A stretch of DNA of 64,000 nt from Octopus vulgaris. Lineage: Eukaryota. The first letter of the stretch is position 1; the number at the start of each line of letters is the position of its first letter. The stretch lies in assembly GCA_951406725.2 (NCBI GenBank), contig OX597843.1:1550001-1614000 (forward strand), given 5' to 3'. Under the pieces are notes generated by a model. The model was not told the origin of the DNA, searched no databases, and saw nothing but the letters and a program-made list of their open reading frames with translations. Position numbers and translations under genes: made by a program. Positions 1-59,259 of this stretch are shown piece after piece.

Positions 1-159
1 CTGCGCATGCGCGGGTTGAGTACTGCATGCGCGAAAGAATAAGTCCTGAGTCGATCGATAAGCTGCTGCCATGAGTGAATGCGCGAAAGTGTGAATGCGC
101 ATGCGCGAAGGTGTGACTGCGCATGCGCGAACGTGTGAATGCGCATGCGCGAGAGCGCA

Positions 160-2020
160 TGGCCGCAGTGAAAGGTGCTCTAGCATGGCTGCAGTGAAAT
201 GACTGAAACAGATTAAAGAGAGTATATACAGGCACAGGAATGGCTGTGTGGAACCACATGATTCCGGGTTCAGTACTGGGCTTACAAAAGAATAAGTCCT
301 GGAGTCGAGTTGCTCGATTAAAGGCGGTGCTCCAGCATGGCCGCAGTGAAATGACTGAAACAGAGTAAAGAGAGTATATACAGGCACAGGAATGGCTGTG
401 TGGAACCACATGATTCCGGGTTCAGTACTGGGCTTACAAAAGAATAAGTCCTGGAGTCGAGTTGCTCGATTAAAGGCGCGTGTGAGCATGCGCATGGCGA
501 AAAAGTGGAGTGGCATCGCAGTGATGGCTGGGAACTGAAACCGCGATGGCAAAAGATAACTGGCAGGCGAAAGGATGAGTGCTGCATGGAACGTGAAATG
601 TGATCATGGTTCAGGTGGACTGGGACAACGTGTGACTGGAGCAAGATAAGTCCTGGAGTCGAGTTGCTCGATTAAAGTGTGCTGCAGCATGGCCGCAGTG
701 AAATGACTGAAACAGAGTAAAGAGAGTATATACAGGCACAGGAATGGCTGTGTGGAACCACATGATTCCGGGTTCAGTACTGGGCTTACAAAATAATAAG
801 TGACTGGAGTCGAGTTGCTCGATTAAAGGCGGTGCGCACTGCGCATGGCCGCAGTGAAATGACTGAAACAGAGTAAAGAGAGTATATACAGGCACAGGAA
901 TGGCTGTGTGGAACCACATGATTCCGGGTTCAGTACTGGGCTTACAAAAGAATAAGTCCTGGAGTCGAGTTGCTCGATTAAAGGCGGTGCTGCAGCATGG
1001 CCGCAGTGAAATGACTGAAACAGAGTAAAGAGAGTATATACAGGCACAGGAATGGCTGTGTGGAACCACATGATTCCGGGTTCAGTACTGGGCTTACAAA
1101 AGAATAAGTCCTGGAGTCGAGTTGCTCGATTAAAGGCGGTGCGACTGCGCATGGCCGCAGTGAAATGACTGAAACAGAGTAAAGAGAGTATATACAGGCA
1201 CAGGAATGGATGTGTGGAACCACATGATTCCGGGTTCAGTACTGGGCTTACAAAAGAATAAGTCCTGGAGTCGAGTTGCTCGATTAAAGGCGGTGCGACT
1301 GAGCATGGCCGCAGTGAAATGACTGAAACAGAGTAAAGAGAGTATATACAGGCACAGGAATGACTGTGTGGAACCACATGATTCCGGGTTCAGTACTGGG
1401 CTTACAAAAGAATAAGTCCTGGAGTCGAGTTGCTCGTTTAAAGGCGGTGCTCCAGCATGGCCGCAGTGAAATGACTGAAACAGAGTAAAGAGAGTATATA
1501 CAGGCACAGGAATGGCTGTGTGGAACCACATGATTCCGGGTTCAGTACTGGGCTTACAAAAGAATAAGTCCTGGAGTCGAGTTGCTCGATTAAAGAAGGT
1601 GCGACTGCGCATGGCCGCAGTGAAATGACTGAAACAGAGTAAAGAGAGTATATACAGGCACAGGAATGGCTGTGTGGAACCACATGATTCCGGGTTCAGT
1701 ACTGGGCTTACAAAATAATAAGTACTGGAGTCGAGTTGCTCGATTAAAGGCGGTGCTCCAGCATGGCCGCAGTGAAATGACTGAAACAGAGTAAAGAGAG
1801 TATATACAGGCACAGGAATGGCTGTGTGAACCACATGATTCCGGGTTCAGTACTGGGCTTACAAAAGAATAAGTCCTGGAGTCGAGTTGCTCGATTAAAG
1901 GCGGTGCTGCAGCATGGCCGCAGTGAAATGACTGAAACAGAGTAAAGAGAGTATATACAGGCACAGGAATGGCTGTGTGGAACCACATGATTCCGGGTTC
2001 AGTACTGGGCTTACAAAAGA
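160..2020 (+). repeat. 152/154-bp tandem monomer array (mini-SINE satellite)
   Basis: Unit ggcacaggaatggctgtgtggaaccacatgattccgggttcagtactgggcttacaaaagaataagtcctggagtcgagttgctcgattaaaggcggtgctgcagcatggccgcagtgaaatgactgaaacagagtaaagagagtatataca recurs every 152-154 bp; garbled at ~480-640. Confidence 0.95.
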
Positions 2021-2095
2021 ATATATATACGATGGTCTTCTTTCAGTTCCGTCTACCAAATCAACTCACAAGGCTTTGGTCGGCCCAATGTGCCA

Positions 2096-3710
2096 CGCAT
2101 GCGCGAAAGTGTGACTGCGCATGCGTTAACGTGTGACTGCGCATGCGCGAAAGTGTGAATGCGCATGCGCGAAAATGTTAGTGCGCATGCGCGAACGTGT
2201 GACTGCGCATGCGCGGAACGTGTGAATGCGCATGCGCGAACGTGTGACTGCGCATGCGCGGAAGTTTGAATGCGCATGCGCGAAAGTGTGACTGCGAATA
2301 AGCTAAAACGTGTGAACTGCGCATGCGCGAAAGTGTTAGAATGCGCATGCGCGAAGGTGTGACTGCGCATGCGCGAACGTGTGAATGCGCATGCGCGAGA
2401 GCGCATGGCCGCGAGTGAAATGACTGCAGAGTAAAGAGAGTATATACAGCGCACAGGAATGGCTGTGTGGAACCACATGCATTCGCGGGTTCAGTACTGG
2501 GCTTACAAAAGAATAAGTCCTGCGATGCGAGTTGCTTGCGATTAAAGTGTGACTGCGCATGCGCAATATGGCCGCATGCGCGAAGTGAAATGACTGAAAC
2601 AGAGTAAGAGAGTATATACAGGCACAGGAATGGCTGTGTGGAACCACATGATTCCGGGCGCATAGTACTGGGCTTACAAAAGAATATATATACGCATGCG
2701 TCTTCTTGTCAGTGCGCGTCTACGAAATCAACTGCGCATGCGCTAAAGTTTGGTCGGCGCGAAAGTGTGAGTGCGCATGCGCGAAAGTGTGACTGCGCAT
2801 GCGCGAACGTGTGAGTGCGCATGCGCGAATGTGTGAATGCGCATGCGCGAAAGTTTAGTGCGCATGCGCGAAAGTGTGACTGCGCATGCGCGGAACGTGT
2901 GACTGCGCATGCGCGAAAGTGCGACTGCGCATGCGCGAAAGTTTGAGTGCGCATGCGCGAAAGTGCGACTGCGCATGCGCGAACGTTTGACTGCGCATGC
3001 GCGGAAGTGTAAGTGCGCATGCGCGAAAGTGTTACTGCGCATGCGCGAACGTGTGAATGCGCATGCGGAACGTGTGACTGCGCATGCGCGAAAGTGTGAG
3101 TGCGCATGCGCGAAAGTGTTACTGCGCATGCGCGAACGTGTGAATGCGCATGCGCGGAAGTGCGACTGTGCGCATGCGCGAACGTGTGACTGCGCATGCG
3201 CGAACGTGTGACTGCGCATGCGCGGAAGTGTGAGTGCGCATGCGCGAAAGTGTGACTGCGCATGCGCGAACGTTTGACTGCGCATGCGCGAAAGTGTGAG
3301 TGCGCATGCGCGAAAGTTTAACTGCGCATGCGCGAAAGTGTGAATGCGCATGCGCGAAAATGAGTGTGCATGCGCGAAAGTTTAACTGCGCATGCGCGAA
3401 AGTGTGACTGCGCATGCGCGAACGTGTGACTGCGCATGCGCAAATTATTAACTGCGCATGCGCGAACGTGTGACTGCGCATGCGCAAAAGTGTGACTGCG
3501 CATGCGCGAAAATGTTATTGCGCATGCGCGAACGTGTGAATGCGCATGCGCGAACGTGTGACTGCGCATGCGCGGAAGTGTGAGTGCGCATGCGCGAAAG
3601 TGCGACTGCGAATAAGCTAAAGTGTGAATGCGCATGCGCGAAAGTGTGAATGCGCATGCGCGAAGGTGTGACTGCGCATGCGCGAACGTGTGAATGCGCA
3701 TGCGCGAGAG
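2096..3710 (+). repeat. 22-bp minisatellite (gtgtgactgcgcatgcgcgaa[a/c])n, interrupted at ~2400-2755 by hybrid 152-mer sequence
   Basis: Direct reading of tandem units with constant core tgcgcatgcgcg. Confidence 0.93.
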
Positions 3711-4738
3711 CGCATGGCCGCAGTGAAATGACTAAAACAGAGTAAAGAGAGTATATACAGGCACAGGAATGGCTGTGTGGAACCACATGATTCCGGGTTC
3801 AGTACTGGGCTTACAAAAGAATAAGTCCTGGAGTCGAGTTGCTCGATTAAAGGCGGTGCTGCAGCATGGCCACAGTGAAATGACTGAAACAGAGTAAAGA
3901 GAGTATATACAGGCACAGGAATGGCTGTGTGGAACCACATGATTCCGGGTTCAGTACTGGGCTTACAAAATAATAAGTCCTGGAGTCGAGTTGCTCGATT
4001 AAAGGCGGTGCGACTGCGCATGGCCGCAGTGAAATGACTGAAACAGAGTAAAGAGAGTATATACAGGCACAGGAATGGCTGTGTGGAACCACATGATTCC
4101 GGGTTCAGTACTGGGCTTACAAAAGAATAAGTCCTGGAGTCGAGTTGCTCGATTAAAGGCGGTGCTGCAGCATGGCCGCAGTGAAATGACTGAAACAGAG
4201 TAAAGAGAGTATATACAGGCACAGGAATGGCTGTGTGGAACCACATGATTCCGGGTTCAGTACTGGGCTTACAAAAGAATAAGTCCTGGAGTCGAGTTGC
4301 TCGATTAAAGGCGGTGCTCCAGCATGGCCGCAGTGAAATGACTGAAACAGAGTAAAGAGAGTATATACAGGCACAGGAATGGCTGTGTGGAACCAACATG
4401 ATTCCGGGTTCAGTACTGGGCTTACAAAAGAATAAGTCCTGGAGTCGAGTTGCTCGATTAAAGGCGGTGTGACTGCGCATGGCCGCAGTGAAATGACTGA
4501 AACAGAGTAAAGAGAGTATATACAGGCACAGGAATGGCTGTGTGGAACCACATGATTCCGGGTTCAGTACTGGGCTTACAAAAGATTAAGTCCTGGAGTC
4601 GAGTTGCTCGATTAAAGGCGGTGCTGCAGCATGGCCGCAGTGAAATGACTGAAACAGAGTAAAGAGAGTATATACAGGCACAGGAATGGCTGTGTGGAAC
4701 CACATGATTCCGGGTTCAGTACTGGGCTTACAAAAGAA
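3711..4738 (+). repeat. 152-bp monomer array
   Basis: About 6.7 tandem copies of the same monomer. Confidence 0.95.
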
Positions 4739-4814
4739 TATATATACGATGGTCTTCTTTCAGTTTCCGTCTACCAAATCAACTCACAAGGCTTTGGTCG
4801 GCCCAAGGTGCCAC

Positions 4815-5505
4815 GCATGCGCGAAAGTGTGACTGCGCATGCGTTAACGTGTGACTGCGCGAAAGTGTGCTGCGCCTGCGCGAAAGTGTGAATGCGCATG
4901 CGCGAAAATGTTAGTGCGCATGCGCGAACGTGTGACTGCGCATGCGCGGAAAGTTTGAATGCGCATGCGCGAAAGTGCGACTGCGCATGCGCGAAAGTGT
5001 GACTGCGCATGCGCGAAAGTGTGAGTGCGCATGCGCGAACGTGTGAGTGCGCATGCGCGAAAGTGTAACTGCGCATGCGCGAAAGTGTTACTGCGCATGC
5101 GCAACGTGTGACTGCGCATGCGCGAAAGTGTGAGTGCGCATGCGCGGAAGTGTAAGTGCGCATGCGCGAAAGTGTCGACTGCGCATGCGCGAACGTGTGA
5201 CTGCGCATGCGCGAACGTGTGACTGCGCATGCGCAAAAGTGTAACTGCGCATGCGCGAACGTGTGACTGCGCATGCGCAAACGTTTGACTGCGCATGCGC
5301 GAAAGTGTGATTGCGCATGCGCGAAAGTGTTACTGCGCATGCGCGAACGTGTGAATGCGCATGCGCGGAAAGTGTGAGTGCGCATGCGCGAAAGTGCGAC
5401 TGCGCAATAAGCGAAAGTGTGAATGCGCATGCGCGAAAGTGTGAATGCGCATACGCGAAGGTGTGACTGCGCATGCGCGAACGTGTGAATGCGCATGCGC
5501 GAGAG
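4815..5505 (+). repeat. 22-bp GCGCATGCGC minisatellite block
   Basis: Tandem 22-mers with the same start and end variants as the other blocks. Confidence 0.95.
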
Positions 5506-6682
5506 CGCATGGCCGCAGTGAAATGACTAAAACAGAGTAAAGAGAGTATATACAGGCACAGGAATGGCTGTGTGGAACCACATGATTCCGGGTTCAGTAC
5601 TGGGCTTACAAAAGAATAAGTCCTGGAGTCGAGTTGCTCGATTAAAGGCGGTGCTGCAGCATGGCCGCAGTGAAATGACTGAAACAGAGTAAAGAGAGTA
5701 TATACAGGCACAGGAATGGCTGTGTGGAACCACATGATTCCGGGTTCAGTACGGGGCTTACAAAATATTAAGTCCTGGAGTCGAGTTGCTCGATTAAAGG
5801 CGGTGCGACTGCGCATGGCCGCAGTGAAATGACTGAAACAGAGTAAAGAGAGTATATACAGGCACAGGAATGGCTGTGTGGAACCACATGATTCCGGGTT
5901 CAGTACTGGGCTTACAAAAGAATAAGTCCTGGAGTCGAGTTGCTCGATTAAAGGCGGTGCTGCAGCATGGCCGCAGTGAAATGACTGAAACAGAGTAAAG
6001 AGAGTATATACAGGCACAGGAATGGCTGTGTGGAACCACATGATTCCGGGTTCAGTACTGGGCTTACAAAAGAATAAGTCCTGGTGTCGAGTTGCTCGAT
6101 TAAAGAAGGTGCTCTAGCATGGCTGCAGTGAAATGACTGAAACAGATGAAACAGAGTATATACAGGCACAGGAATGGCTGTGTGGAACCACATGATTCCG
6201 GGTTCAGTACTGGGCTTACAAAAGAATAAGTCCTGGAGTCGAGTTGCTCGATTAAAGAAGGTGCTCTAGCATGGCTGCAGTGAAATGACTGAAACAGAGT
6301 AAAGAGAGTATATACAGGCACAGGAATGGCTGTGTGGAACCACATGATTCCGGGTTCAGTACTGGGCTTACAAAATAATAAGTCCTGGAGTCGAGTTGCT
6401 CGATTAAAGGCGGTGCGACTGCGCATGGCCGCAGTGAAATGACTGAAACAGAGTAAAGAGAGTATATACAGGCACAGGAATGGCTGTGTGAACCACATGA
6501 TTCCGGGTTCAGTACTGGGCTTACAAAAGAATAAGTCCTGGAGTCGAGTTGCTCGATTAAAGGCGGTGCTGCAGCATGGCCGCAGTGAAATGACTGAAAC
6601 AGAGTAAAGAGAGTATATACAGGCACAGGAATGGCTGTGTGGAACCACATGATTCCGGGTTCAGTACTGGGCTTACAAAAGA
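5506..6682 (+). repeat. 152-bp monomer array
   Basis: About 7.7 tandem copies. Confidence 0.95.
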
Positions 6683-6756
6683 ATATATATACGATGGTCT
6701 TCTTTCAGTTTCCGTCTACCAAATCAACTCACGGCCCAAGGCTTTGGTCGGCCCAA

Positions 6757-7357
6757 AGTGTGAATGCGCATGCGCGAAAATGGTGCCACGCAGCGCGGAA
6801 GTGTGGTGCGCATGCGCGAAAGTGCGACTGCGCATGCGCGTGAATGCGCATGCGCGAAAGTGTGAGTGCGCATGCGCGAAAGTGTGACTGCGCATGCGCG
6901 AAAGTGTGAATGCGCATGCGCGAGAGTGTGAGTGCGCATGCGCGAAAGTGTAACTGCGCATGCGCGAAAGTGTGACTGCGCATGCGTCAACGTGTGACTG
7001 CGCATACGCGAACGTGTGACTGCGCATGCGCGAAAGTGTGAGTGCGCATGCGCGAAGGTGCGACTGCGCATGCGCGAACGTGTGACTGCGCATGCGCGGA
7101 AGTGTAAGTGCGCATGCGCGAAAGTGCGACTGCGCATGCGTTAACGTGTGACTGCGCATGCGCGAAAGTGTGAGTGCGCATGCGCGAAAGTGTTACTGCG
7201 CATGCGCGAACGTGTGAATGCGCATGCGTGGAAGTGTGAGTGCGCATGCGCGAAGGTGCGACTGTGCATGCGCGAACGTGTGACTGCACATGCGTGGAAG
7301 TGTAAGTGCGCATGCGCGAAAGTTCGACTGCGCATGCGCGAAAGTGTGAGTGCGCAG
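6757..7357 (+). repeat. 22-bp GCGCATGCGC minisatellite block
   Basis: Tandem 22-mers ending at the inversion junction ...gtgagtgcgcagt|ctgtgcctgtat. Confidence 0.95.
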
Positions 7358-7358
7358 T

Positions 7359-10300
7359 CTGTGCCTGTATATACTCTCTTTACTCTGTTTCAGTCATTTC
7401 ACTGCGGCCATGCTGCAGCACCGCCTTTAATCGAGCAACTCGACTCCAGGACTTATTCTTTTGTAAGCCCAGTACTGAACCCGGAATCATGTGGTTCCAC
7501 ACAGCCATTCCTGTGCCTGTATATACTCTCTTTACTCTGTTTCAGTCATTTCACTGCGGCCATGCTGGAGCACCTTCTTTAATCGAGCAACTCGACTCCA
7601 GGACTTATTCTTTTGTAAGCCCAGTACTGAACCAGGAATCATGTTGTTCCACACAGCAAATCCTCTGCCTGTATATACTCTCTTTACTCTGTTTCAGTCA
7701 TTTCACTGCGGCCATGCGCTCTCGCGCATGCGCATTCACACGTTCGCGCATGCGCAGTCACACCTTCGCGCATGCGCATTCACACTTTCGCGCATGCGCA
7801 TTCACACTTTAGCTTATTCGCAGTCGCACTTTCGCGCATGCGCACTCACACTTTTGCGCATGCGCAGTCACACGTTCGCGCATGCGCAGTCACACGTTCG
7901 CGCATGCGCAGTTACAATTTTGCGCATGCGCAGTCACACGTTCGCGCATGCGCAGTCACACTTTCGCGCATGCGCAGTTAAACTTTCGCGCATGCGCACT
8001 CACACTTTCGCGCATGCGCATTCACACGTTCGCGCATGCGCACTCACACTTTCGCGCATGCGCAGTCAAACGTTCGCGCATGCGCAGTCACACGTTAACG
8101 CATGCGCAGTCGCACTTTCGCGCATGCGCACTAACACTTCCGCGCATGCGCAGTCACACGTTCGCGCATGCGCAGTCGCACCTTCGCGCATGCGCACTCA
8201 CACTTCCGCGCATGCGCATTCACACGTTCGCGCATGCGCAGTAACACTTTCGCGCATGCGCACTCACACTTTCGCGCATGCGCAGTCAAACGTTCGCGCA
8301 TGCGCAGTCACACGTTAACGCATGCGCAGTCGCACTTTCGCGCATGCGCACTTACACTTCCGCGCATACGCAGCAACACGTTCGCGCATGCGCAGTCGCA
8401 GCTTCGCGCATGCGCACTCACACTTCCGCGCATGCGCAGTCACACGTTCGCGCATGCGCAGTCACACGTTGACGCATGCGCAGTCACACTTTCGCGCATG
8501 CGCAGTTACACTTTCGGGCATGCACACTCACACTCTCGCGCATGCGCATTCACACGTTCGCGCATGCGCAGTCACACTTTCGCGCATGCGCACTCACACT
8601 TTCGCGCATGCGCATTCAAACTTTAGCGCATGCGCAGTCGCACTTTCGCGCATGCGCACTCACACTTCCGCGCATGCGCAGTCACACGTTCGCGCATGCG
8701 CACTAACATTTTCGCGCATGCGCATTCACACTTTCGCGCCGGCGCAGTCACACGTTAACGCATGCGCAGTCACACATTCGCGCATGCGTGGCACCTTGGG
8801 CCGACCAAAGCCTTGTGAGTTGATTTGGTAGACGGAAACTGAAAGAAGACCATCGTATATATATTCTTTTGTAAGCCCAGTACTGAACCCGGAATCATGT
8901 GGTTCCACACAGCCATTCCTGTGCCTGTATATACTCTCTTTACTCTGTTTCAGTCATTTCACTGCGGCCATGCTGCAGCACCGCCTTTAATCGAGCAACT
9001 CGTCTCCAGGACTTATTCTTTTGTAAGCCCAGTACTGAACCCGGAATCATGTTGTTCCACACACCAAATCCTGTGCCTGTATATACTCTCTTTACTCTGT
9101 TTCAGTCATTTCACTGCGGCCATGCTGGAGCACCTTCTTTAATCGAGCAACTCGACTCCAGGACTTATTCTTTTGTAAGCCCAGTACTGAACCCGGAATC
9201 ATGTTGTTCCACACAGCCATTCCTGTGCCTGTATATACTCTCTTTACTCTGTTTCAGTCATTTCACTGCGGCCATGCTGGAGCACCGCCTTTAATCGAGC
9301 AACTCGACTCCAGGACTTATTCTTTTGTAAGCCCAGTACTGAACCCGGAATCATGTGGTTCCACACAGCCATTCCTGTGCCTGTATATACTCTCTTTACT
9401 CTGTTTCAGTCATTTCACTGCGGCCATGCTGGAGCACCGCCATTAATCGAGCAACTCGACACCAGGACTTATTCTTTTGTAAGCCCAGTACTGAACCCGG
9501 AATCATGTGGTTCCACACAGCCATTCCTGTGCCTGTATATACTCTCTTTACTCTGTTTCAGTCATTTCACTGCGGCCATGCTGCAGCACCGCCTTTAATC
9601 GAGCAACTCGACTCCAGGACTTATTCTTTTGTAAGCCCAGTACTGAACCGGAATCATGTGGTTCCACACAGCCATTCCTGTGCCTGTATATACTCTCTTT
9701 ACTCTGTTTCAGTCATTTCACTGCGGCCATGCGCTCTCGCGCATGCGCATTCACACGTTCGCGCATGCGCAGTCACAACTTCGCGCATGCGCATTCACAC
9801 TTTCGCGCATGCGCATTCACACTTTCGCTTATGCGCAGTCACACTTTCGCGCATGCGCACTCACACGTTCGCGCATGCGCAGTCACACGTTCGCGCATGC
9901 GCATTCACACGTTCGCGCATGCGCAATCTCACCTTCGCGCATGCGCAATAACATTTTCGCGCATGCGCAGTCACACGTTCGCGCATGCGCAGTCACACGT
10001 TCGCGCATGCGCAGTTACACGTTTGCGCATGCGCAGTCACACGTTCGCGCATGCGCAGTCACACTTTCGCGCATGCGCAGTTAAACTTTCGCGCATGCGC
10101 ACTCACACTTTCGCGCATGCGCATTCACACGTTCGCGCATGCGCAGTAACACTTTCGCGCATGCGCACTCACACTTTCGCGCATGCGCAGTCAAACGTTC
10201 GCGCATGCGCAGTCACACGTTAACGCATGCGCAGTTGCACTTTCGCGCATGCGCACTAACACTTCCGCGCATGCGCAGTCACACGTTCGCGCATGCGCAG

Positions 10301-11651
10301 TCGCACCTTCGCGCATGCGCACTAACACTTTCGCGCATGCGCACCAACACGTTCGCGCATGCGCAGTCTCACCTTCGCGCATGCGCACTCACACTTTCGC
10401 GCATGCGCAGTCAAACGTTCGCGCATGCGCAGTCACACGTTAACGCATGCGCAGTCGCACTTTCGCGCATGCGCACTTACACTTCCGCGCATGCGCAGTC
10501 ACACGTTCGCGCATGCGCAGTCGCACCTTCGCGCATGCGCACTCACACTTCCGCGCATGCGCAGTCACACGTTCGCGCATGCGCAGTCACACGTTGACGC
10601 ATGCGCAGTCACACTTTCGCGCATGCGCAGTTACACTTTCGCGCATGCGCACTCACACTCTCGCGCATGCGCATTCACACTTTCGCGCATGCGCACTCAC
10701 ACTTTCGCGCATGCGCATTCACACTTTAGCGCATGCGCAGTCGCACTTTCGCGCATGCGCACTCACACTTCCGCGCATGCGCAGTCACACGTTCGCGCAT
10801 GCGCACTAACATTTTCGCGCATGCGCATTCACACTTTCGCGCAGGCGCAGTCACAGGTTAACGCATGCGCAGTCACACTTTCGCGCATGCGTGGCACCTT
10901 TGGCCGACCAAAGCCTTGTGAGTTGATTTGGTAGACGGAAACTGAAAGAAGACCATCGTATATATATTCTTTTGTAAGCCCAGTACTGAACCCGGAATCA
11001 TGTGGTTCCACACAGCCATTCCTGTGCCTGTATATACTCTCTTTACTCTCTTTCAGTCATTTCACTGCGGCCATGCTGCAGCACCGCCTTTAATCGAGCA
11101 ACTCGACTCCAGGACTTATTATTTTGTAAGCCCAGTACTGAACCCGGAATCATGTGGTTCCACACAGCCATTCCTGTGCCTGTATATACTCTCTTTACTC
11201 TGTTTCAGTCATTTCACTGCGGCCATGCTGCAGCACCTTCTTTAATCGAGCAACTCGACTCCAGGACTTATTCTTTTGTAAGGCCAGTACTGAACCCGGA
11301 ATCATGTTGTTCCACACAGCAAATCCTGTGCCTGTATATACTCTCTTTACTCTGTTTCAGTCATTTCACTGCGGCCATGCTGGAGCACCGCCTTTAATCG
11401 AGCAACTCGACTCCAGGACTTATTCTTTTGTAAGCCCAGTACTGAACCCGGAATCATGTGGTTCCACACAGCCATTCCTGTGCCTGTATATACTCTCTTT
11501 ACTCTGTTTCAGTCATTTCACTGCGGCCATGCTGCAGCACCGCCTTTAATCGAGCAACTCGACTCCAGGACTTATTCTTTTGTAAGCCCAGTACTGAACC
11601 CGGAATCATGTGGTTCCACAGAGCCATTCCTGTGCCTGTATATACTCTCTT
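7359..11651 (-). repeat. Inverted block of the composite satellite (152-mers 7359-7715, 8864-9732, 10967-11651; 22-mers 7716-8788, 9733-10891)
   Basis: All units are the reverse complement of those in 1-7357. Confidence 0.95.
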
Positions 11652-11766
11652 GTGTGACTGCGCATGCGCGAACGTGTGACTGTGCATGCGCCAAAGTAAG
11701 ACTGCGCATGCGCTAAAGTTTGACTGCGCATGCGCGAACGTGTGACTGCGCATGCGCGAACGTGTG

Positions 11767-12052
11767 GGAAGAAGGGGGAGAAGCAACATAGGTGCAGGTG
11801 TGACCATGGACGCCAACTCCGCCGCCATCGTCACACGAAAATATATGCGTTAAAATGGAAAAAAATGATGTTAAATTATTTTTATATCGTAGACTCATCG
11901 TAGACGCGCGCTAATACCCAGAAGGGCTCGATATGAATCACGACTACAAGATACCCGCTTTTGGTTAAACTGCACCGCAAAATGTGGGAGTATTTAGGAA
12001 TTTAAATCGTAGGAGACAGACACTCACACAACTACTGTTTTATATATATAGA
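11767..12052 (-). mobile_element. 5' part of non-autonomous Helitron running into the 22-bp minisatellite (copies end at 15083 and 18120)
   Basis: Minus strand starts A|TCTATATATATAAAACAGTAGTTGTGTG; ~190 bp are homologous to the 5' end of the complete Helitron at 12188. Confidence 0.75.
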
Positions 12053-12187
12053 TTTTGTGAAATTTGATTTAGTATTTCTAAATTGAATTTTTCCCTGTAA
12101 GTTATGAATAATATTCCCTCAAATTATATATATATATATATACTGTATATATATATGTGTATGTGTGTATATATATATATATATATA

Positions 12188-12588
12188 TCTTTATATATAA
12201 AAGTGAAGTTGTGTGTCTGTCCCCTACGATTTAGATTCCTAACTACTCCCTCATTTTGCGGTGCAGAGTAACCAAAAGCGGGTATCTTATAGTCGTGATT
12301 CATATCGAGCCCTTCTGCGTATTAGCGCACGTCTACGATGAGTTTACGATTAAAAAAAAAAATTTACCATCATTTTTTCCGCAGTTTTAATGCATTTTCG
12401 CTCGGTTTATATAAGGGAAGTAACTCTCTAAAAATGTATTATTAAATCTCAGAATGTAAAAAGCTACAGTAACACCCCCCCCCTTTGTGGGTAGCCATAT
12501 TGAGATGGCTATTATACTTTACATCTCTAAAAATGCTTATATAGTTATTTCCCTTACAAACCCGAGCAACGCCGGGCGACACTGCTAG
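12188..12588 (+). mobile_element. Non-autonomous Helitron (~400 bp)
   Basis: A|TCTTTATATATAAAAG 5' end; 3' subterminal hairpin CCCGagcaacgcCGGG followed by CTAG|T; inserted at AT with no TSD (canonical Helitron termini). Confidence 0.85.
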
Positions 12589-12667
<79 letters not shown>

Positions 12668-12669
<2 letters not shown>

Positions 12670-12790
12670 TCTTTCATTCTTTTATTTGTTACAGTCATTT
12701 GACTTTCGCCATGCTGGAGCACTGCCTTTAGTCGAGCAAATCGACTCTAGGGATTATTCTTTGTAAGCCTAGTACTTATTCTATTTTGCC
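12668..12790 (-). mobile_element. SINE 3' fragment (same family as the parent of the 152-mer); also in duplication copies 2 and 3
   Basis: cagtcatttgact..gccatgctggagcactgcctttagtcgagcaaatcgac..ttattctttgtaagcctagtacttattc matches 51060-51160. Confidence 0.8.
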
Positions 12791-13350
12791 ACACACACAT
12801 ACATATACACACACACACACATACATATATACACATACGCACACACACTCACACACGTATACACACATACATCCTGCTGCTTCTTGGGAGGGTCATTGTG
12901 CCAATAACGATATGGTTACACATCTGACCAACTTCGTAATCAATCATTTGTTTAACGTGCTGGTTAAACAATCAAAGATTTATTTCTTCGTGAAAGTCCG
13001 TTCATCGCTATTTTTCGCGACCTTTTCAATAGCTTGTCCTTTCTCTTCAACGTCTGCCCTGAATTTGGCCGCGAATTAATCTTATGTCTGCGTGCATGCA
13101 TGCCTTTCTATGTGTGTGTAGATGTGTGTTTGCTTAGAAGAATAAGGGTGAGAGGAAAGGAGATTATGTCCGTGCGTGCGAGTGTGTATGTGTGTGTGTG
13201 TGTGTGCGTGCGTATGTGTGTGGTTGTGTGTACACTCGTGTGACTACTTGCATGTGTATGTGTACGTGTGTGTTAGTGTGTGTAGCCATCCATGACTAGG
13301 TATGTGTATGTATAACTGTGTCTATATACGCACATAGATTTATATGCAAG

Positions 13351-13582
13351 AGGCGGCGAGCTGGCAGAAACGTTAGCACGCCGGGCGAAATGCTTAGCAG
13401 TATTTCGTCTGCCGCTACGTTCTGAGTTCAAATTCCGCCGAGGTCGACTTTGCCTTTCATCCTCTCGGCGTCGATAAATAAAGTACCAGTTTCGCACTGG
13501 GTCGATGTAATCGACTTAATCCGTTTGTCCGTCCTTGTTTGTCCCCTCTATGTTTAGCCCCTTGTGGGTAGCAAAAGAAATA
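13351..13582 (+). mobile_element. tRNA-derived SINE with Nin/Deu-like core (copies ~16383-16613, ~19426-19657)
   Basis: Head ggcggcgagctggcagaaacgttagc, B-box-like gagttcaaattc, core gccgaggtcgactttgcctttcatcct...gtcgataaataaagtacc; homologous to 48005-48142 on the minus strand. Confidence 0.8.
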
Positions 13583-13608
13583 TATACCATGTATATATGT
13601 GAATAGAA

Positions 13609-13842
13609 GCAGGCGTGACTGTGTTGTAAGCCGTTCCGGGTTCAGTCCAGCTGCGTGGCACTTTGAGCGGGTGTTTCTACTATAGCCCTGGGTCGACTAA
13701 ACCCTTGTGAGTAGATTTGGTTGACAGAATCTGAAAAAGCTCGTCATATATGTCTTTATCAATATTTAGCAGAAGCAACAGAGTGACTCGAGGGGCGAGA
13801 GTTTCGTGTATTGACACTTGTCAAACTACACACAGACACACA

Positions 13843-13883
<41 letters not shown>

Positions 13884-14032
13884 CCATACATATGCATGAG
13901 TGGCCGTGTGGTAAGTAGCCTGCTTACCAACCACATGGTTCTGGGTTCAGCCTCATTGCGTGACGCCTTGGTCTTCTCCTAGAGCCTCAGGCCAACCAAA
14001 GCCTTGTGAGTGAATTTGGTAGACGGAAACTG
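13609..14032 (+). mobile_element. Two degenerate SINE 5' halves (13609-13748, 13897-14032)
   Basis: gtggccgtgtggtaag..aaccacatggttctgggttcag..ccttgtgagtgaatttggtagacggaaactg matches the reverse complement of 51300-51471. Confidence 0.75.
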
Positions 14033-15224
14033 TGTGTGTGTTTGTGTTTGTCCCCCCGATGGTGGCATGTATATACATAATACTGATACGTAACTGGACA
14101 GAATAAATTTAAAATCTATAAATGTCTTCGAATAACCAGTCACTCATCTGGGAAAGCCTTGAAATCAATGTTACCATCTGGGGACTATGTGTGACCGAGT
14201 GATAATAAAAAGACTGAAAGGAGGTCTGCAATCAAATAAATTTTACTCTACACTTTGCAACTGAATCAGTGGAGGCAAAGATGCCTCTCATTTACTTGAC
14301 AATTTATGCAGCACATTGCAGAAATCACAATGTAAGTGTATGTCAAAACAAACTGTTACACTGTTGTACCATTGAATTACAAATAATGCTCATCTTTTAT
14401 GCTCGGGTAACCCTACAGCTTCCAAGAGCACAACTGTATTCATTTTTGCTTAGATAAAATGACAAAATTGTAGATGTTAAGTCCCCATGGAGGGGTCTTT
14501 CTAACTTTGTAAGATGAAATTTTATAGATATTACTTCATTTGTGTCTAATCACTGCGGCCATGCTGCAGCACCGCCTTTAATCGAGCAACTCGACTCCAG
14601 GACTTATTCTTTTGTAAGCCCAGTACTGAACCCGGAATCATGTGGTTCCACACAGCCATTCCTGTGCCTGTATATACTCTCTTGTGTGACTGCGCATGCG
14701 CGAACGTGTGACTGTGCATGCGCCAAAGTAAGACTGCGCATGCGCTAAAGTTTGACTGCGCATGCGCGAACGTGTGACTGCGCATGCGCGAACGTGTGGG
14801 AAGAAGGGGAGAAGCAACATAGGTGCAGGTGTGACCATGGACGCCAACTCCGCCGCCATCGTCACACGAAAATATATGCGTTAAAATGGAAAAAAATGAT
14901 GTTAAATTATTTTTATATCGTAGACTCATCGTAGACGCGCGCTAATACCCAGAAGGGCTCGATATGAATCACGACTACAAGATACCCGCTTTTGGTTAAA
15001 CTGCACCGCAAAATGTGGGAGTATTTAGGAATCTAAATCGTAGGAGACAGACACTCACACAACTACTGTTTTATATATATAGATTTTGTGAAATTTGATT
15101 TAGTATTTCTAAATTGAATTTTTCCCTGTAAGTTATGAATAATATTCCCTCAAATTATATATATATATATATATATATACTGTATATATATATGTGTATG
15201 TGTGTATATATATATATATATATA

Positions 15225-15622
15225 TCTTTATATATAAAAGTGAAGTTGTGTGTCTGTCTCCTACGATTTAGATTCCTAACTACTCCCTCATTTTGCGGTG
15301 CAGAGTAACCAAAAGCGGGTATCTTATAGTCGTGATTCATATCGAGCCCTTCTGGGTATTAGCACACGTCTACGATGAGTTTACGATTAAAAAAAAAAAT
15401 TTACCATCATTTTTTCCGTAGTTTTAATGCATTTTCGCTCGGTTTATATAAGGGAAGTAACTCTCTAAAAATGTATTATTAAATCTCAGAATGTAAAAAG
15501 CTACAGTAACACCCCCCTTTGTGGTTAGCCATATTGAGATGGCTATTATACTTTACATCTCTAAAAATGCTTATATAGTTATTTCCCTTACAAACCCGAG
15601 CAACGCCGGGCGACACTGCTAG
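15225..15622 (+). mobile_element. Non-autonomous Helitron, copy 2
   Basis: Same termini as 12188-12588. Confidence 0.85.
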
Positions 15623-15699
<77 letters not shown>

Positions 15700-16874
15700 T
15701 CTTTCATTCTTTTATTTGTTACAGTCATTTGACTTTCGCCATGCTGGAGCACTGCCTTTAGTCGAGCAAATCGACTCTAGGGATTATTCTTTGTAAGCCT
15801 AGTACTTATTCTATTTTGCCACACACACATACATATACACACACACACACACATACATATATACACATACGCACACACACTCACACACGTATACACACAT
15901 ACATCCTGCTGCTTCTTGGGAGGGTCATTGTGCCAATAACGATATGGTTACACATCTGACCAACTTCGTAATCAATCATTTGTTTAACGTGCTGGTTAAA
16001 CAATCAAAGATTTATTTCTTCGTGAAAGTCCGTTCATCGCTATTTTTCGCGACCTTTTCAATAGCTTGTCCTTTCTCTTCAACGTCTGCCCTGAATTTGG
16101 CCGCGAATTAATCTTATGTCTGCGTGCATGCATGCCTTTCTATGTGTGTGTAGATGTGTGTTTGCTTAGAAGAATAAGGGTGAGAGGAAAGGAGATTATG
16201 TCCGTGCGTGCGAGTGTGTATGTGTGTGTGTGTGTGTGCGTGCGTATGTGTGTGGTTGTGTGTACACTCGTGTGACTACTTGCATGTGTATGTGTACGTG
16301 TGTGTTAGTGTGTGTAGCCATCCATGACTAGGTATGTGTATGTATAACTGTGTCTATATACGCACATAGATTTATATGCAAGAGGCGGCGAGCTGGCAGA
16401 AACGTTAGCACGCCGGGCGAAATGCTTAGCAGTATTTCGTCTGCCGCTACGTTCTGAGTTCAAATTCCGCCGAGGTCGACTTTGCCTTTCATCCTCTCGG
16501 CGTCGATAAATAAAGTACCAGTTTCGCACTGGGTCGATGTAATCGACTTAATCCGTTTGTCCGTCCTTGTTTGTCCCCTCTATGTTTAGCCCCTTGTGGG
16601 TAGCAAAAGAAATATATACCATGTATATATGTGAATAGAAGCAGGCGTGACTGTGTTGTAAGCCGTTCCGGGTTCAGTCCAGCTGCGTGGCACTTTGAGC
16701 GGGTGTTTCTACTATAGCCCTGGGTCGACTAAACCCTTGTGAGTAGATTTGGTTGACAGAATCTGAAAAAGCTCGTCATATATGTCTTTATCAATATTTA
16801 GCAGAAGCAACAGAGTGACTCGAGGGGCGAGAGTTTCGTGTATTGACACTTGTCAAACTACACACAGACACACA

Positions 16875-16918
<44 letters not shown>

Positions 16919-18259
16919 ACCCATACATATGCATGAGTGGCCGTGTGGTAAGTAGCCTGCTTACCAACCACATGGTTCTGGGTTCAGCCTCATTGCGTGA
17001 CGCCTTGGTCTTCTCCTAGAGCCTCAGGCCAACCAAAGCCTTGTGAGTGAATTTGGTAGACGGAAACTGTGTGTGTGTTTGTGTTTGTCCCCCCGATGGT
17101 GGCATGTATATACATAATACTGATACGTAACTGGACAGAATAAATTTAAAATCTATAAATGTCTTCGAATAACCAGTCACTCATCTGGGAAAGCCTTGAA
17201 ATCAATGTTACCATCTGGGGACTATGTGTGACCGAGTGATAATAAAAAGACTGAAAGGAGGTCTGCAATCAAATAAATTTTACTCTACACTTTGCAACTG
17301 AATCAGTGGAGGCAAAGATGCCTCTCATTTACTTGACAATTTATGCAGCACATTGCAGAAATCACAATGTAAGTGTATGTCAAAACAAACTGTTACACTG
17401 TTGTACCATTGAATTACAAATAATGCTCATCTTTTATGCTCGGGTAACCCTACAGCTTCCAAGAGCACAACTGTATTCATTTTTGCTTAGATAAAATGAC
17501 AAAATTGTAGATGTTAAGTCCCCATGGAGGGGTCTTTCTAACTTTGTAAGATGAAATTTTATAGATATTACTTCATTTGTGTCTAATCACTGCGGCCATG
17601 CTGCAGCACCGCCTTTAATCGAGCAACTCGACTCCAGGACTTATTCTTTTGTAAGCCCAGTACTGAACCCGGAATCATGTGGTTCCACACAGCCATTCCT
17701 GTGCCTGTATATACTCTCTTGTGTGACTGCGCATGCGCGAACGTGTGACTGTGCATGCGCCAAAGTAAGACTGCGCATGCGCTAAAGTTTGACTGCGCAT
17801 GCGCGAACGTGTGACTGCGCATGCGCGAACGTGTGGGAAGAAGGGGAGAAGCAACATAGGTGCAGGTGTGACCATGGACGCCAACTCCGCCGCCATCGAC
17901 ACACGAAAATATATGCGTTAAAATGGAAAAAAATGATGTTAAATTATTTTTATATCGTAGACTCATCGTAGACGCGCGCTAATACCCAGAAGGGCTCGAT
18001 ATGAATCACGACTACAAGATACCCGCTTTTGGTTAAACTGCACCGCAAAATGTGGGAGTATTTAGGAATCTAAATCGTAGGAGACAGACACTCACACAAC
18101 TACTGTTTTATATATATAGATTTTGTGAAATTTGATTTAGTATTTCTAAATTGAATTTTTCCCTGTAAGTTATGAATAATATTCCCTCAAATTATATATA
18201 TATATATATATATACTGTATATATATATGTGTATGTGTGTATATATATATATATATATA

Positions 18260-18657
18260 TCTTTATATATAAAAGTGAAGTTGTGTGTCTGTCTCCTACG
18301 ATTTAGATTCCTAACTACTCCCTCATTTTGCGGTGCAGAGTAACCAAAAGCGGGTATCTTATAGTCGTGATTCATATCGAGCCCTTCTGGGTATTAGCAC
18401 ACGTCTACGATGAGTTTACGATTAAAAAAAAAATTTACCATCATTTTTTCCGTAGTTTTAATGCATTTTCGCTCGGTTTATATAAGGGAAGTAACTCTCT
18501 AAAAATGTATTATTAAATCTCAGAATGTAAAAAGCTACAGTAACACCCCCCCTTTGTGGTTAGCCATATTGAGATGGCTATTATACTTTACATCTCTTAA
18601 AAATGCTTTATAGTTATTTCCCTTACAAACCCGAGCAACGCCGGGCGATACTGCTAG
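18260..18657 (+). mobile_element. Non-autonomous Helitron, copy 3
   Basis: Same termini as 12188-12588. Confidence 0.85.
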
Positions 18658-18738
<81 letters not shown>

Positions 18739-19917
18739 TCTTTCTTTTATTCTTTTATTTGTTACAGTCATTTGACTTTCGCCATGCTGGAGCACTGCCT
18801 TTAGTCGAGCAAATCGACTCTAGGGATTATTCTTTGTAAGCCTAGTACTTATTCTATTTTGCCACACACACATACATATACACACACACACACACATACA
18901 TATATACACATACGCACACACACTCACACACGTATACACACATACATCCTGCTGCTTCTTGGGAGGGTCATTGTGCCAATAACGATATGGTTACACATCT
19001 GACCAACTTCGTAATCAATCATTTGTTTAACGTGCTGGTTAAACAATCAAAGATTTATTTCTTCGTGAAAGTCCGTTCATCGCTATTTTTCGCGACCTTT
19101 TCAATAGCTTGTCCTTTCTCTTCAACGTCTGCCCTGAATTTGGCCGCGAATTAATCTTATGTCTGCGTGCATGCATGCCTTTCTATGTGTGTGTAGATGT
19201 GTGTTTGCTTAGAAGAATAAGGGTGAGAGGAAAGGAGATTATGTCCGTGCGTGCGAGTGTGTATGTGTGTGTGTGTGTGTGCGTGCGTATGTGTGTGGTT
19301 GTGTGTACACTCGTGTGACTACTTGCATGTGTATGTGTACGTGTGTGTTAGTGTGTGTAGCCATCCATGACTAGGTATGTGTATGTATAACTGTGTCTAT
19401 ATACGCACATAGATTTATATGCAAGAGGCGGCGAGCTGGCAGAAACGTTAGCACGCCGGGCGAAATGCTTAGCAGTATTTCGTCTGCCGCTACGTTCTGA
19501 GTTCAAATTCCGCCGAGGTCGACTTTGCCTTTCATCCTCTCGGCGTCGATAAATAAAGTACCAGTTTCGCACTGGGTCGATGTAATCGACTTAATCCGTT
19601 TGTCCGTCCTTGTTTGTCCCCTCTATGTTTAGCCCCTTGTGGGTAGCAAAAGAAATATATACCATGTATATATGTGAATAGAAGCAGGCGTGACTGTGTT
19701 GTAAGCCGTTCCGGGTTCAGTCCAGCTGCGTGGCACTTTGAGCGGGTGTTTCTACTATAGCCCTGGGTCGACTAAACCCTTGTGAGTAGATTTGGTTGAC
19801 AGAATCTGAAAAAGCTCGTCATATATGTCTTTATCAATATTTAGCAGAAGCAACAGAGTGACTCGAGGGGCGAGAGTTTCGTGTATTGACACTTGTCAAA
19901 CTACACACAGACACACA

Positions 19918-19966
<49 letters not shown>

Positions 19967-20809
19967 CCATACATATGCATGAGTGGCCGTGTGGTAAGTA
20001 GCCTGCTTACCAACCACATGGTTCTGGGTTCAGCCCCATTGCGTGACGCCTTGGTCTTCTCCTAGAGCCTCAGGCCAACCAAAGCCTTGTGAGTGAATTT
20101 GGTAGACGGAAACTGTGTGTGTGTTTGTGTTTGTCCCCCCGATGGTGGCATGTATATACATAATACTGATACGTAACTGGACAGAATAAATTTAAAATCT
20201 ATAAATGTCTTCGAATAACCAGTCACTCATCTGGGAAAGCCTTGAAATCAATGTTACCATCTGGGGACTATGTGTGACCGAGTGATAATAAAAAGACTGA
20301 AAGGAGGTCTGCAATCAAATAAATTTTACTCTACACTTTGCAACTGAATCAGTGGAGGCAAAGATGCCTCTCATTTACTTGACAATTTATGCAGCACATT
20401 GCAGAAATCACAATGTAAGTGTATGTCAAAACAAACTGTTACACTGTTGTACCATTGAATTACAAATAATGCTCATCTTTTATGCTCGGGTAACCCTACA
20501 GCTTCCAAGAGCACAACTGTATTCATTTTTGCTTAGATAAAATGACAAAATTGTAGATGTTAAGTCCCCATGGAGGGGTCTTTCTAACTTTGTAAGATGA
20601 AATTTTATAGATATTACTTCATTTGTGTCTAATGTCTATGGTTAAAATTTCATCAACAGCAAAAATATATGAATTGTCATGGGGGTTATGGCCCTTATGC
20701 ATAGAATATAATTTCCAAATTTCATAAAGATTCATTCAGTACTTTTGACCAAGTTTTGGATCATAAAAGAAATTACTAAAATTTGGGATTTATGGCTCCC
20801 ATTAGGGTG

Positions 20810-24245: not shown

Positions 24246-24572
24246 ATGCATAAATCTAAAATCTTAAATAATTTCTTTGTTATCAGTAAAAAAATGGAAT
24301 ATTCCCAAAATTGCATGATTAACTTAAATGATTTTCATTTCTTATTTAAATGTGGTAATTCTCTTGAAAATATTATTTATCGATACACAAAAACTGAACT
24401 TTCACAACTTGAATACTCACTATGTAGTGCCTTACTGCTGGATTTTACCTCGAGAAAGGAACCCTGAGGAAGGAGGGCTGAATTTCGAATACTTCGTACA
24501 ACAAACGGCTGCAGGTTAGGAAAAAAATTTAATCGCCTCTTTCAATTTAGGTTTTTATTTTTCATGTTTATA

Positions 24573-25139
24573 TTGGGTTGTCCGGAAAGTTCGTTCCGAT
24601 TTTTAAAGGAAAGTACATGGTCACTAAATACTTGCCATTACATTTTTAATGAACCAAATCTGAACCATTTCGTTGCACAATACGTCTCCATCTTACATTT
24701 ACCTTAAAAATACCCTCTTCCCAGAATTGGGGTGGTTTCAAGGCAAATAATTCATCAAGGTATCTTTTTACGTCATCTAAGGAATTGAAATTTTCACCAT
24801 TAAGACTATTCTGCAGAGACCTGAATAAGTGGAAATCCGAAGGAGTAATATCTGGTGAATATGGAGGGTGGGGTAAGTCACCCCAGCCAAGCTGCAGCAA
24901 TTTTTGTCTGGTTCCCAAAGCATCAAATGCCGATAATGAATTTTTCTCATCTTTTAATTTAAAGGGTTACAGAATTAACACAGGTTATTGGAACATGAAC
25001 CTTCTTCCACGAAAAGATAGATTAAACTGTGCTCCAAATGGAGGTGTAGTCAAATCCTATTTTATGGACTCAAACATGTTCTAAAATAAGTCGAAATATA
25101 AGCTACTATAAATCTGCAAGAACTTTCCGGACAACCCAA
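24573..25139 (-). mobile_element. Internally deleted mariner element with TIRs and TA duplication
   Basis: TA|ttgggttgtccggaaagttc ... gaactttccggacaacccaa|TA; transposase C-terminus at 24646-24918 (PHPPYSPDITPSDFHLFRSLQ). Confidence 0.92.
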
Positions 25140-25613
25140 TATTTCTATATTTTTATCATGAAATTTTTAATATAAATATGTGGATATTCGTATGGAATAA
25201 TACCTCATGTGCTACATCTGAATTTTCTTGTCTGAATGTTTTAAGACAAATATCCGAAATTTTTATCGTATACCACATTTTATTAATACTTAGCTCATAT
25301 ACGGAGACAAAAATGTTGTACTATATACTGCAGGTTATCTCCATTAAAATTATATTTAGCATTAGAATTCTTCAAGTTGTATAAAAATGGTTATTGTCTG
25401 CATCATTCGAAAGCAAAATAAATTTTGCATAAGGTGTAAAAGATAAAAATAATTTGTATGGTGTTAGTAACAAAATATTTTGTAAGAAATAGAACTTTTA
25501 TCGTCTGTCTTAAATATATTTTCGCCAGTGTATATATCTCAGGTCATCCCATAAGTTCTGTTTGAATTTTGGATAAATAATACAAGTGATCAAATGTTAT
25601 ATTTAATTGAAAG

Positions 25614-26610: not shown

Positions 26611-26641
26611 GTTGAAAGGGGTTTTAATCAAAGCAATTTTA

Positions 26642-30538: not shown

Positions 30539-30540
30539 TT

Positions 30541-30696
30541 ATAGCGTGAGTGAGGAAGATGGCCCCTAGCAACCACACCTTTTAAGATGGATTTCTAAGG
30601 TAGCCCAGGAGCATCGTCACCTCATTCTACATGTCCCTGTAACCTTTGGAGCGAATCGGACGGGATGTAGTGGCATTGAAAGCGATCCAAGCGGTA
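30541..30696 (+). repeat. Left copy of ~156-bp direct repeat bracketing the AT-rich satellite
   Basis: atagcgtgagtgaggaa...gtagtggcattgaaagcgatccaagcggta aligns with 46937-47094. Confidence 0.92.
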
Positions 30697-30719
30697 AAAA
30701 CGCATTTCAGTTCTATATA

Positions 30720-46936: not shown

Positions 46937-47091
46937 ATAGCGTGAGTGAGGAATATGGCCCCTAGCAACCACACCCTTTAAGATAGGGATTTCTAATGTA
47001 GCCCACGAGCTTCGTCACCTATTCCTACATGTCCCTGTAAATTTTGGAGCAAATCGGACGGGACGTAGTGGCATTGAAAGCGATCCAAGCG

Positions 47092-47094
<3 letters not shown>
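46937..47094 (+). repeat. Right copy of ~156-bp direct repeat
   Basis: Aligns with 30541-30696 with scattered substitutions. Confidence 0.92.
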
Positions 47095-57118: not shown

Positions 57119-59259
57119 CTGTGTGGAACCACATGATTCCGGGTCAATACTGGGCTTACAAAAGAATAATTCCTGGAGTCGAGTTGCTCGATTAAAGCGC
57201 TAAAGTGTGAATGCGCATGCGCGAAAAAGTGTGAGTGCGCATGCGCGAACGTGTGACTGCGCATGCGCGAACGTGTGACTGCGCATGCGCAAAATTGTAA
57301 CTGCGCATGCGCGAACGTGTGACTGCGAATGCGCAAAAGTGTAACTGCGCATGCGCGAAAGTGTGAGTGCGCATGCGCGAAAGTGTGAGTGCGCATGTGC
57401 GAAGGTGCGACTGCGCATGCGCGAACGTGTGACTGCGCATGCGCGGAGGTGTAAGTGCGCATGCGCGAAAGTGCGACTGCGCATGCGTTAACGTGTGACT
57501 GCTAATGCGCGAAAGTGTGAGTGCGCATGCGCGAAAGTTTTACTGCGCATGCGCGAAAGTGTGAGTGCGCATGCGCGAAAGTTTAACTGCGCATGCGCGA
57601 AAGTGTGACTGCGCATGCGTCAATGTGTGACTGCGCATGCGCGAACGTGTGACTGCGCATGCGCGAAAATGTGAGTGCGCATGCGCGAAGGTGCAACTGC
57701 GCATGGCCGCAGTGAAATGACTGAAACAGAGTAAAGAGAGTATATACAGGCACAGGAATGACTGTGTGGAACCACATGATTCCGGGTTCAGTACTGGGCT
57801 TACAAAAGAATAAGTCCTGGAGTCGAGTTGCTCGATTAAAGACGGTGCTGCAGCATGGCCGCAGTGAAATGACAGAAACAGAGTAAAGAGAGTATATACA
57901 GGCACAGGAATGGCTGTGTGGAACCACATGATTCCGGGTTCAGTACTGGGCTTACAAAAGAATAAGTCCTGGAGTCGAGTTGCTCGATTAAAGGCGGTGC
58001 TCCAGCATGGCCGCAGTGAAATGACTGAAACAGAGTAAAGAGAGTATATACAGGCACAGGATTTGCTGTGTGGAACCACATGATTCCGGGTTCAGTACTG
58101 GGCTTACAAAAGAATAAGTCCTGGAGTCGAGTTGCTCGATTAAAGAAGGTGCTGCAGCATGGCCGCAGTGAAATGACTGAAACAGAGTAAAGAGAGTATA
58201 TACAGGCACAGGAATGGCTGTGTGGAACCACATGATTCCGGGTTCAGTACTGGGCTTACAAAATAATAAGTCCTGGAGTCGAGTTGCTCGATTAAAGGCG
58301 GTGCGACTGCGCATGGCCGCAGTGAAATGACTGAAACAGAGTAAAGAGAGTATATACAGGCACAGGAATGGCTGTGTGGAACCACATGATTCCGGGTTCA
58401 GTACTGGGCTTACAAAAGAATAAGTCCTGGAGTCGAGTTGCTCGATTAAAGGCGGTGCTGCAGCATGGCCGCAGTGAAATGACTGAAACAGAGTAAAGAG
58501 AGTATATACAGGCACAGGAATGGCTGTGTGGAACCACATGATTCCGGGTCCAGTACTGGGCTTACAAAATAATAAGTCCTGGAGTCGAGTTGCTCGATTA
58601 AAGGCGGTGCGACTGCGCATGGCCGCAGTGAAATGACTGAAACAGAGTAAAGAGAGTATATACAGGCACAGCATTTGCTGTGTGGAACAACATGATTCCG
58701 GGTTCAGTACTGGGCTTACAAAAGAATAAGTCCTGGAGTCGAGTTGCTCGATTAAAGAAGGTGCTCCAGCATGGCCACAGTGAAATGACTGAAACAGAGT
58801 AAGAGAGTATATACAGGCACAGGAATGGCTGTGTGGAACCACATGATTCCGGGTCCAGTACTGGGCTTACAAAATAATAAGTCCTGGAGTCGAGTTGCTC
58901 GATTAAAGGCGGTGCGACTGCGCATGGCCGCAGTGAAATGACTGAAACAGAGTAAAGAGAGTATATACAGGCACAGGAATGGCTGTGTGGAACCACATGA
59001 TTCCGGGTTCAGTACTGGGCTTACAAAAGAATAAGTCCTGGAGTCGAGTTGCTCGATTAAAGGCGGTGCTGCGCATGGCCGCAGTGAAATGACTGAAACA
59101 GAGTAAAGAGAGTATATACAGGCACAGGAATGGCTGTGTGGAACCACATGATTCCGGGTTCAGTACTGGGCTTACAAAAGAATAAGTCCTGGAGTCGAGT
59201 TGCTCGATTAAAGGCGGTGCAGCATGGCCGCAGTGAAATGACTGAAACAGAGTAAAGAG
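57114..59259 (+). repeat. Second locus of the composite satellite (22-mers ~57200-57700; 152-mers ~57700-59259)
   Basis: Same monomers and orientation as 1-7357; runs into the gap. Confidence 0.95.

Follow-up and report, generated by a model that had tools for sequence, protein, structure and literature searches.

A 22-bp minisatellite with NRF1-type palindromes in the Octopus vulgaris genome and candidate explanations for its conserved core

Repeats as carriers of factor-binding sites

It is already known that NRF1 sites can lie in a minisatellite, that satellites can act as platforms for factors and that Helitrons can hold dense clusters of binding sites. Human Satellite 3 (HSat3) is a tandem repeat with very many factor motifs and has been proposed to gather factors (PMC11526998). 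Regarding NRF1, its binding is on record at a human promoter made of tandem repeats, namely the subtelomeric 29-bp repeats of the TERRA promoter, a minisatellite whose units each contain NRF1 sites and on which NRF1 binding increases upon demethylation (PMC6600276). In Caenorhabditis, heat-shock elements form dense homotypic clusters of sites for a single factor within Helitron repeats and recruit HSF-1 (PMC6927752), and in the oyster the Cg_HINE Helentrons carry dispersed tandem arrays of a mollusc type, sometimes two unrelated ones in a row (PMC7492417). Human NRF1 prefers GCGCATGCGC with an AT spacer (Kd 0.31 µM), any base change in GCGC lowers its affinity, and its named homologs are EWG and P3A2, the binding domains being common to all three (PMC10810270).

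The repeat described here lies in a 64-kb stretch of Octopus vulgaris DNA, analysed as a whole and called the window below. With HSat3 it shares the many motif copies (250 units in the window); HSat3, however, extends over megabases, its binding and function having been shown, whereas the arrays here span 0.1-1.2 kb, contain an NRF1 palindrome and are described from sequence alone (PMC11526998). The TERRA sites depart by two bases from the consensus and belong to a known promoter, whereas the 22-bp arrays hold the exact consensus site, in hundreds per locus (PMC6600276). As a further likeness to the Caenorhabditis clusters, one array of the window abuts a Helitron-like end, but the worm clusters lie inside Helitrons, whereas in the octopus this junction appears local and rare and the sites are predicted (PMC6927752). 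The HINE arrays are bordered by conserved sequence on the left and on the right (PMC7492417); no such flanks were found around the large arrays of the window, which adjoin pieces of SINEs. In the mainly open-access literature on octopus Helitrons and satellites and on NRF1 sites, repeat databases aside, we found no description of the 22-bp repeat.

Such a repeat bears on an open question, whether binding shapes the sequence of a satellite or merely follows it, and it brings a built-in control in each unit, one half being a textbook site and the other half free. Bound arrays could set thousands of high-affinity sites in competition with promoters for NRF1; unbound arrays would offer a clean case of palindrome-biased homogenisation.

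Organisation of the arrays and their neighbours

An earlier note on this DNA had described, at 2096-10891, a 22-bp minisatellite with roughly 200-250 units in the window, each with an NRF1-type palindrome. The estimate of the number was accurate: wrap-around alignment finds 250 full units of 79 types in the window, 213 of them in 2096-10891, and GCGCATGCGC has 218 exact occurrences in the window (mean of shuffles 0.09; none of 100 shuffles reaches 218), 185 of which fall within 2096-10891. The distance between successive sites of the window is exactly 22 bp in 165 of 217 cases. The units are indeed 22 bp long, and they make up six arrays (13-52 units) between which lie copies of a 152-bp repeat together with a short spacer. 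In Tandem Repeats Finder the 22-bp arrays alternate with the 152/154-bp repeat, as set out in the following list.

79..152, forward strand: 22-bp array A0, 3 full units
646..2023, forward strand: 152/154-bp SINE-derived tandem repeat, with more copies at 174-478
2096..2398, forward strand: 22-bp array A1, 13 full units
2757..3707, forward strand: 22-bp array A2, 43 full units
3712..4740, forward strand: 152/154-bp SINE-derived array between A2 and A3
4735..4830, forward strand: spacer of ~96 bp heading 22-bp arrays, a reversed SINE middle (62/69 identical to the SINE at 54620-55025); further copies at 2018-2112, 2681-2790, 6680-6782, 8772-8867 and 10875-10970
4814..5502, forward strand: 22-bp array A3, 31 full units
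5507..6685, forward strand: 152/154-bp SINE-derived array between A3 and A4
6755..7356, forward strand: 22-bp array A4, 26 full units, terminating at the inversion point
7351..7356, no strand: self-complementary hexamer TGCGCA, the strand-switch point, in the order forward linker, hexamer, reverse linker
7359..7717, reverse strand: 152-bp SINE-derived array, inverted
7722..8788, reverse strand: 22-bp array A5, 48 full units, inverted
8862..9732, reverse strand: 152-bp SINE-derived array, inverted
9737..10891, reverse strand: 22-bp array A6, 52 full units, inverted
10965..11651, reverse strand: 152-bp SINE-derived array, inverted, forming the right edge of the inverted block
11652..11766, forward strand: short 22-bp array H1, 5 copies, recurring at 14684-14798 and 17721-17835 through a 3-kb triplication
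57197..57705, forward strand: 22-bp array A7, 22 full units; 152-bp units then continue up to an N gap at 59260

The repeat with which the six arrays of 2096-10891 alternate derives from an internally deleted SINE: the head is fused to the tail and the middle is missing. When compared with the dispersed element at 54620-55025, the tail of the 152-bp unit is identical at 82 of 93 bases and the head matches as two short pieces. The junctions between arrays and SINE repeat use core-like microhomology. Ten SINE-derived 152/154-bp units, against 41 plain ones, carry a patch of 22-bp unit; this patch, converted from a 22-bp unit, introduces half of an NRF1-type site.

The inverted block extends over 7357-11651, with its left edge at the TGCGCA hexamer, the sole strand switch found in the window with the pattern used. 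A simple artefact of mirror reading at 7356 was rejected because the arrays on the two sides differ in length. A6 copies A5 at the higher-order level (identical units: 29 of the 39 aligned), and shuffling of units between arrays is seen. The composite block of A7 and 152-bp units begins inside a truncated tRNA-Ser gene (57068-57197), to which it is joined via a short match to the SINE head. At 481-660, 2400-2760 and 6732-6800 the letters of 22-bp and 152-bp units are interleaved, probably through consensus or polishing errors, so that variants seen once may include assembly noise. Rfam gave no match at the gathering score in 1-15200, and a two-core pattern had no match in viral contigs and none in metagenome contigs.

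On its other side H1 adjoins part of a Helitron-like element; the features that we take to be Helitron hallmarks are an A/TC start, a 3' hairpin and a CTAG/T end.

11767..12052, reverse strand: 5' part of a Helitron-like element, with its A/TC start at 12052, running into H1; a matching 3' end was not found in the window
12188-12588: non-autonomous Helitron-like element, complete with 401 bp and lying within a TA run, present also at ~15225-15625 and ~18260-18660

The 401-bp element has all three features, and its 3' hairpin folds no better than shuffles (z -0.84). It stands head to head with the related 5' fragment, the 286-bp part adjoining H1, whose far end is 87% identical to it over ~209 bp. 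This region belongs to three near-identical tandem copies (~11500-20630) of a 3.03-kb unit with satellite ends, Helitron-like elements and SINEs.

Variation in core and linker

For the comparison of variants, positions 1-11 of the unit were taken as linker and positions 12-22 as core, and 238 of the 250 units were retained; excluded were 8 copies that belong to the 3-kb triplication and 4 broken units with at least 2 gaps. The core, TGCGCATGCGC, is intact in 204 of these 238 units, and only 19 show the majority form of the 11-bp linker. A kept core with a variable linker, as claimed earlier, is thus what the units display, except that linker positions 3, 6 and 10 are near-invariant, their variation being about as low as that of the core. 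Relative to the majority unit there are 46 differences in the core and 363 in the linker, over 11 positions each. On minimum spanning trees of the 75 unit types, 20.7 changes fall in the core and 58.5 in the linker, counts that are inflated by recombination, the four gametes being present in 31 of 52 pairs of common alleles.

The contrast lies in how far variants have spread. Novel variants confined to types seen once are as numerous in the core (12) as in the linker (11), which indicates that the core is not cold to mutation. Among alleles found in at least 10 units, by contrast, one lies in the core and ten in the linker, against 11 and 11 rarer alleles (Fisher p 0.027). The p value depends on the cut-off, being 0.022 at 8 copies and 0.16 at 5 copies, the latter largely because one complex change is common to the end units of several arrays; with inner units only (n=161), it is 0.033, 0.043 and 0.09 at three cut-offs. 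Several linker positions have two common alleles and ten core positions have none. The only common core variant is C22>T (16 units), a CpG transition at the outer base. Core mutants are commoner at array ends (11/70 versus 6/161), a count that includes shared end units of one origin and was set aside for that reason.

When positions were permuted, the best windows of 10 and 11 bases both began at position 12 (p 0.006-0.026 for any window); windows of 12 bases were not significant (p 0.10-0.19). Neutral simulations were run on a single array of 238 units, not on several related ones, and runs of similar diversity were retained. The observed share of changes in the core was reached in 2/577, 0/466, 2/564 and 0/568 runs when the window was fixed, and in 10/577, 0/466, 36/564 and 3/568 runs when any window was allowed. 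The positions of the NRF1 site are hence constrained relative to their flanks, with a significance that varies with the cut-off and with whether the window is fixed beforehand. The earlier note had asked that core and linker be compared after correction for relatedness, and by the spectrum of spread, the simulations and the inner units the core is still the more conserved part. Some influence allows linker variants to spread and halts core variants.

Beyond the window, 24 runs were returned for the query 11652-12060; they carry four organism labels, and 20 of them contain a part of the query. In four runs, 1562, 1318, 465 and 1734 contigs were placed on 14684-14800, and the 22-bp unit is therefore a widespread family. 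Among the 40 of 81 contig variants listed, 34 lie in the linker, 3 at position 22 and 3 at positions 12-21, one of the last three being the query's own, and seeding may favour intact cores. This pattern agrees with that of the window. Of the raw reads of runs X22 and X23 only 10 and 116 could be placed, too few even on the SINE part, and these runs were left out.

Two arguments made earlier from these units fare less well. The first concerned helical phasing of the sites, 22 bp being close to two turns of the helix. At 10.5 bp per turn the unit makes 2.10 turns, a slip of 34 degrees per unit, and for 10.6-10.2 bp per turn the period overshoots two turns by 27-57 degrees, so that it does not come to a whole number of turns. 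With a slip of ~34 degrees the phase is only local, between neighbouring units, and after about five units a site lies on the opposite face. The other argument was that CpGs in the core rarely decay. This is true of the two inner CpGs, with 4 and 1 changes in 238 units, but not of the outer CpG, with 16 C>T and 9 G>A. Rare decay is moreover expected in invertebrate repeats and lends little force to a case for binding: methylation in Octopus bimaculoides is low in intergenic DNA and in transposons, and relatively higher in satellites (PMC9476566), and given that octopus repeats are mostly lowly methylated, intact CpGs alone say little. In the 152-bp unit, transitions affect 2 of 10 CpG positions against 4 of 63 other C/G positions, numbers too small for an inference on methylation. 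Of the earlier interpretation as a whole, motif identity and core conservation are retained; phasing beyond neighbours and the CpG argument are not.

Binding, DNA structure, neutral history and transposition

The explanation that we prefer, tentatively and at somewhat under an even chance, is that binding by a protein of the NRF1/EWG family filters which unit variants spread. The 218 exact GCGCATGCGC matches have GCGC half-sites around a 2-bp AT spacer, which bears out the identity of the motif as the preferred NRF1 site (PMC10810270). T12, which lies outside the palindrome, starts the best conserved window, with 0 changes in 238 units; an invariant T12 would fit a protein site better than a hairpin, and palindrome repair would not protect it. 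It counts against binding that 213 of 250 units have G directly after the palindrome, where the symmetric crystal site has A. New mutations strike core and linker equally, and those that spread are nearly all in the linker. As a possible mechanism, an NRF1/EWG-family protein would occupy the core and help units with an intact site to spread or to be retained; a bound, open array may exchange or amplify more readily, or may lose units without a site. The copying process would presumably combine unequal exchange and conversion. By symmetry with the tested G3>A, C22>T would be expected to cost human NRF1 about four-fold in affinity (PMC10810270). This variant is tolerated under the binding and the palindrome-repair models alike.

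A sink that benefits the host would be a further, putative step beyond spread filtered by binding. A wider reading appears unlikely, in which an NRF1/EWG ortholog would occupy thousands of perfect sites across the repeat family, its binding would drive the spread of the repeat, and array size, differing between individuals and species, would thereby titrate a factor for mitochondrial and neuromuscular genes. Two other motif readings were dropped. What we take to be an E2F-like motif, TTTSSCGC, overlaps the end of the core (89 occurrences in 2096-10891) and was not adopted because its A-run includes the most variable linker position. The second, AGGTGTGA, presumably T-box-like, occurs only 4 times in the same range.

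The main rival, which we hold to be somewhat unlikely, is that DNA structure rather than a protein protects the core, with the single-stranded palindromic cores of neighbouring units pairing antiparallel, the linkers left free, and template switching mending mismatches in the cores and initiating exchanges there. Core-core pairing is consistent with the predicted fold of three units (-21.3 kcal/mol, z -2.4), and the strand switch of the inversion at a self-complementary hexamer, a symmetric double change that restores the palindrome in one unit (type 50), the core-like microhomology at the SINE-repeat junctions and the patched SINE-derived units all point in the same direction. The strand switch and the double change, however, are single events each, and conservation is asymmetric about the palindrome, with 0 changes at G13 against 16 at C22, a difference that CpG mutability at C22 could explain, and with the outlying T12 invariant as well. 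A purely neutral history, by which some eleven early variants fell in the linker by chance and were then amplified, the match to NRF1 being the coincidence of a GC-rich palindrome, we regard as distinctly unlikely. The arrays do share a common ancestry, the core/linker signal is carried by just 11 common alleles, and with a window chosen post hoc the neutral probability rises to as much as 0.017 if all sites mutate at a uniform rate and 0.064 if their rates are uneven. Against this, with the window fixed the probability is at most 0.004 in four neutral models, two common alleles are found at several linker positions and none at ten core positions, and a like pattern recurs, among the 40 of 81 contig variants listed, under four organism labels. 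Furthermore, GC- and CpG-rich sequence is expected to mutate more, not less, and the core is such a sequence.

It is very unlikely, in our view, that the arrays are internal repeats of a non-autonomous Helitron, their NRF1 sites kept as the element's own enhancer in the manner of the heat-shock elements of Caenorhabditis Helitrons. Tandem arrays do occur within Helitron or Helentron elements of oyster and worm (PMC7492417, PMC6927752), and H1 joins a 5' part whose complete neighbour, 87% identical, has the hallmark ends. Yet a 5' TC end stands upstream of an array only at H1 to H3, and this is a single junction, one event that was triplicated. Moreover, no array of the window is flanked by a Helitron 3' end (hairpin and CTRR), their far sides being pieces of SINEs. 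In the contigs of four runs, summed depth, which is no copy number, falls from unit peaks of 851,000, 276,000, 17,000 and 497,000 to 940, 0, 18 and 0 just past the junction, i.e., to ~0.1% or zero. The Helitron linker is absent from the 24 of 116 loose ends listed. In run X3 it is abundant yet joined to other sequence; one contig of this run matches 14684-14798 without a difference and then stops at the edge, which is support for the units but none for a junction with the Helitron. The rarity of the junction in contigs argues against the Helitron as a general carrier of the arrays, although they may have an old Helitron origin.

The remaining window holds microsatellites, a 29-bp AT-rich satellite, tRNA-Ser genes and relics of a reverse transcriptase and of a transposase. 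Near the arrays, no other protein gene was seen in the list of open reading frames for 11.7-30.7 kb, nor by eye in the remainder. The segments 21215-23800 and 24560-27900 comprise a broken LINE that retains a reverse-transcriptase domain (PF00078), together with relics of Tc1/mariner type (PF01359 at 25773-26141). Nine tRNA-Ser(TGA) genes (49235-56298, both strands) are interleaved with SINE copies in repeated blocks. A GC-rich 70-bp minisatellite (29692-30302, 8.8 copies, 96% matches) adjoins (AAGCG/AAGCC)n and (ATAA)n runs and contains CCAAT and ATGGCG words, which we assume to be putative factor motifs. Finally, the 29-bp satellite, with 10% GC, forms a 16-kb array (30723-46803) in which the GC skew switches strand and which has related sequence on either side (30540-30710 and 46940-47095).
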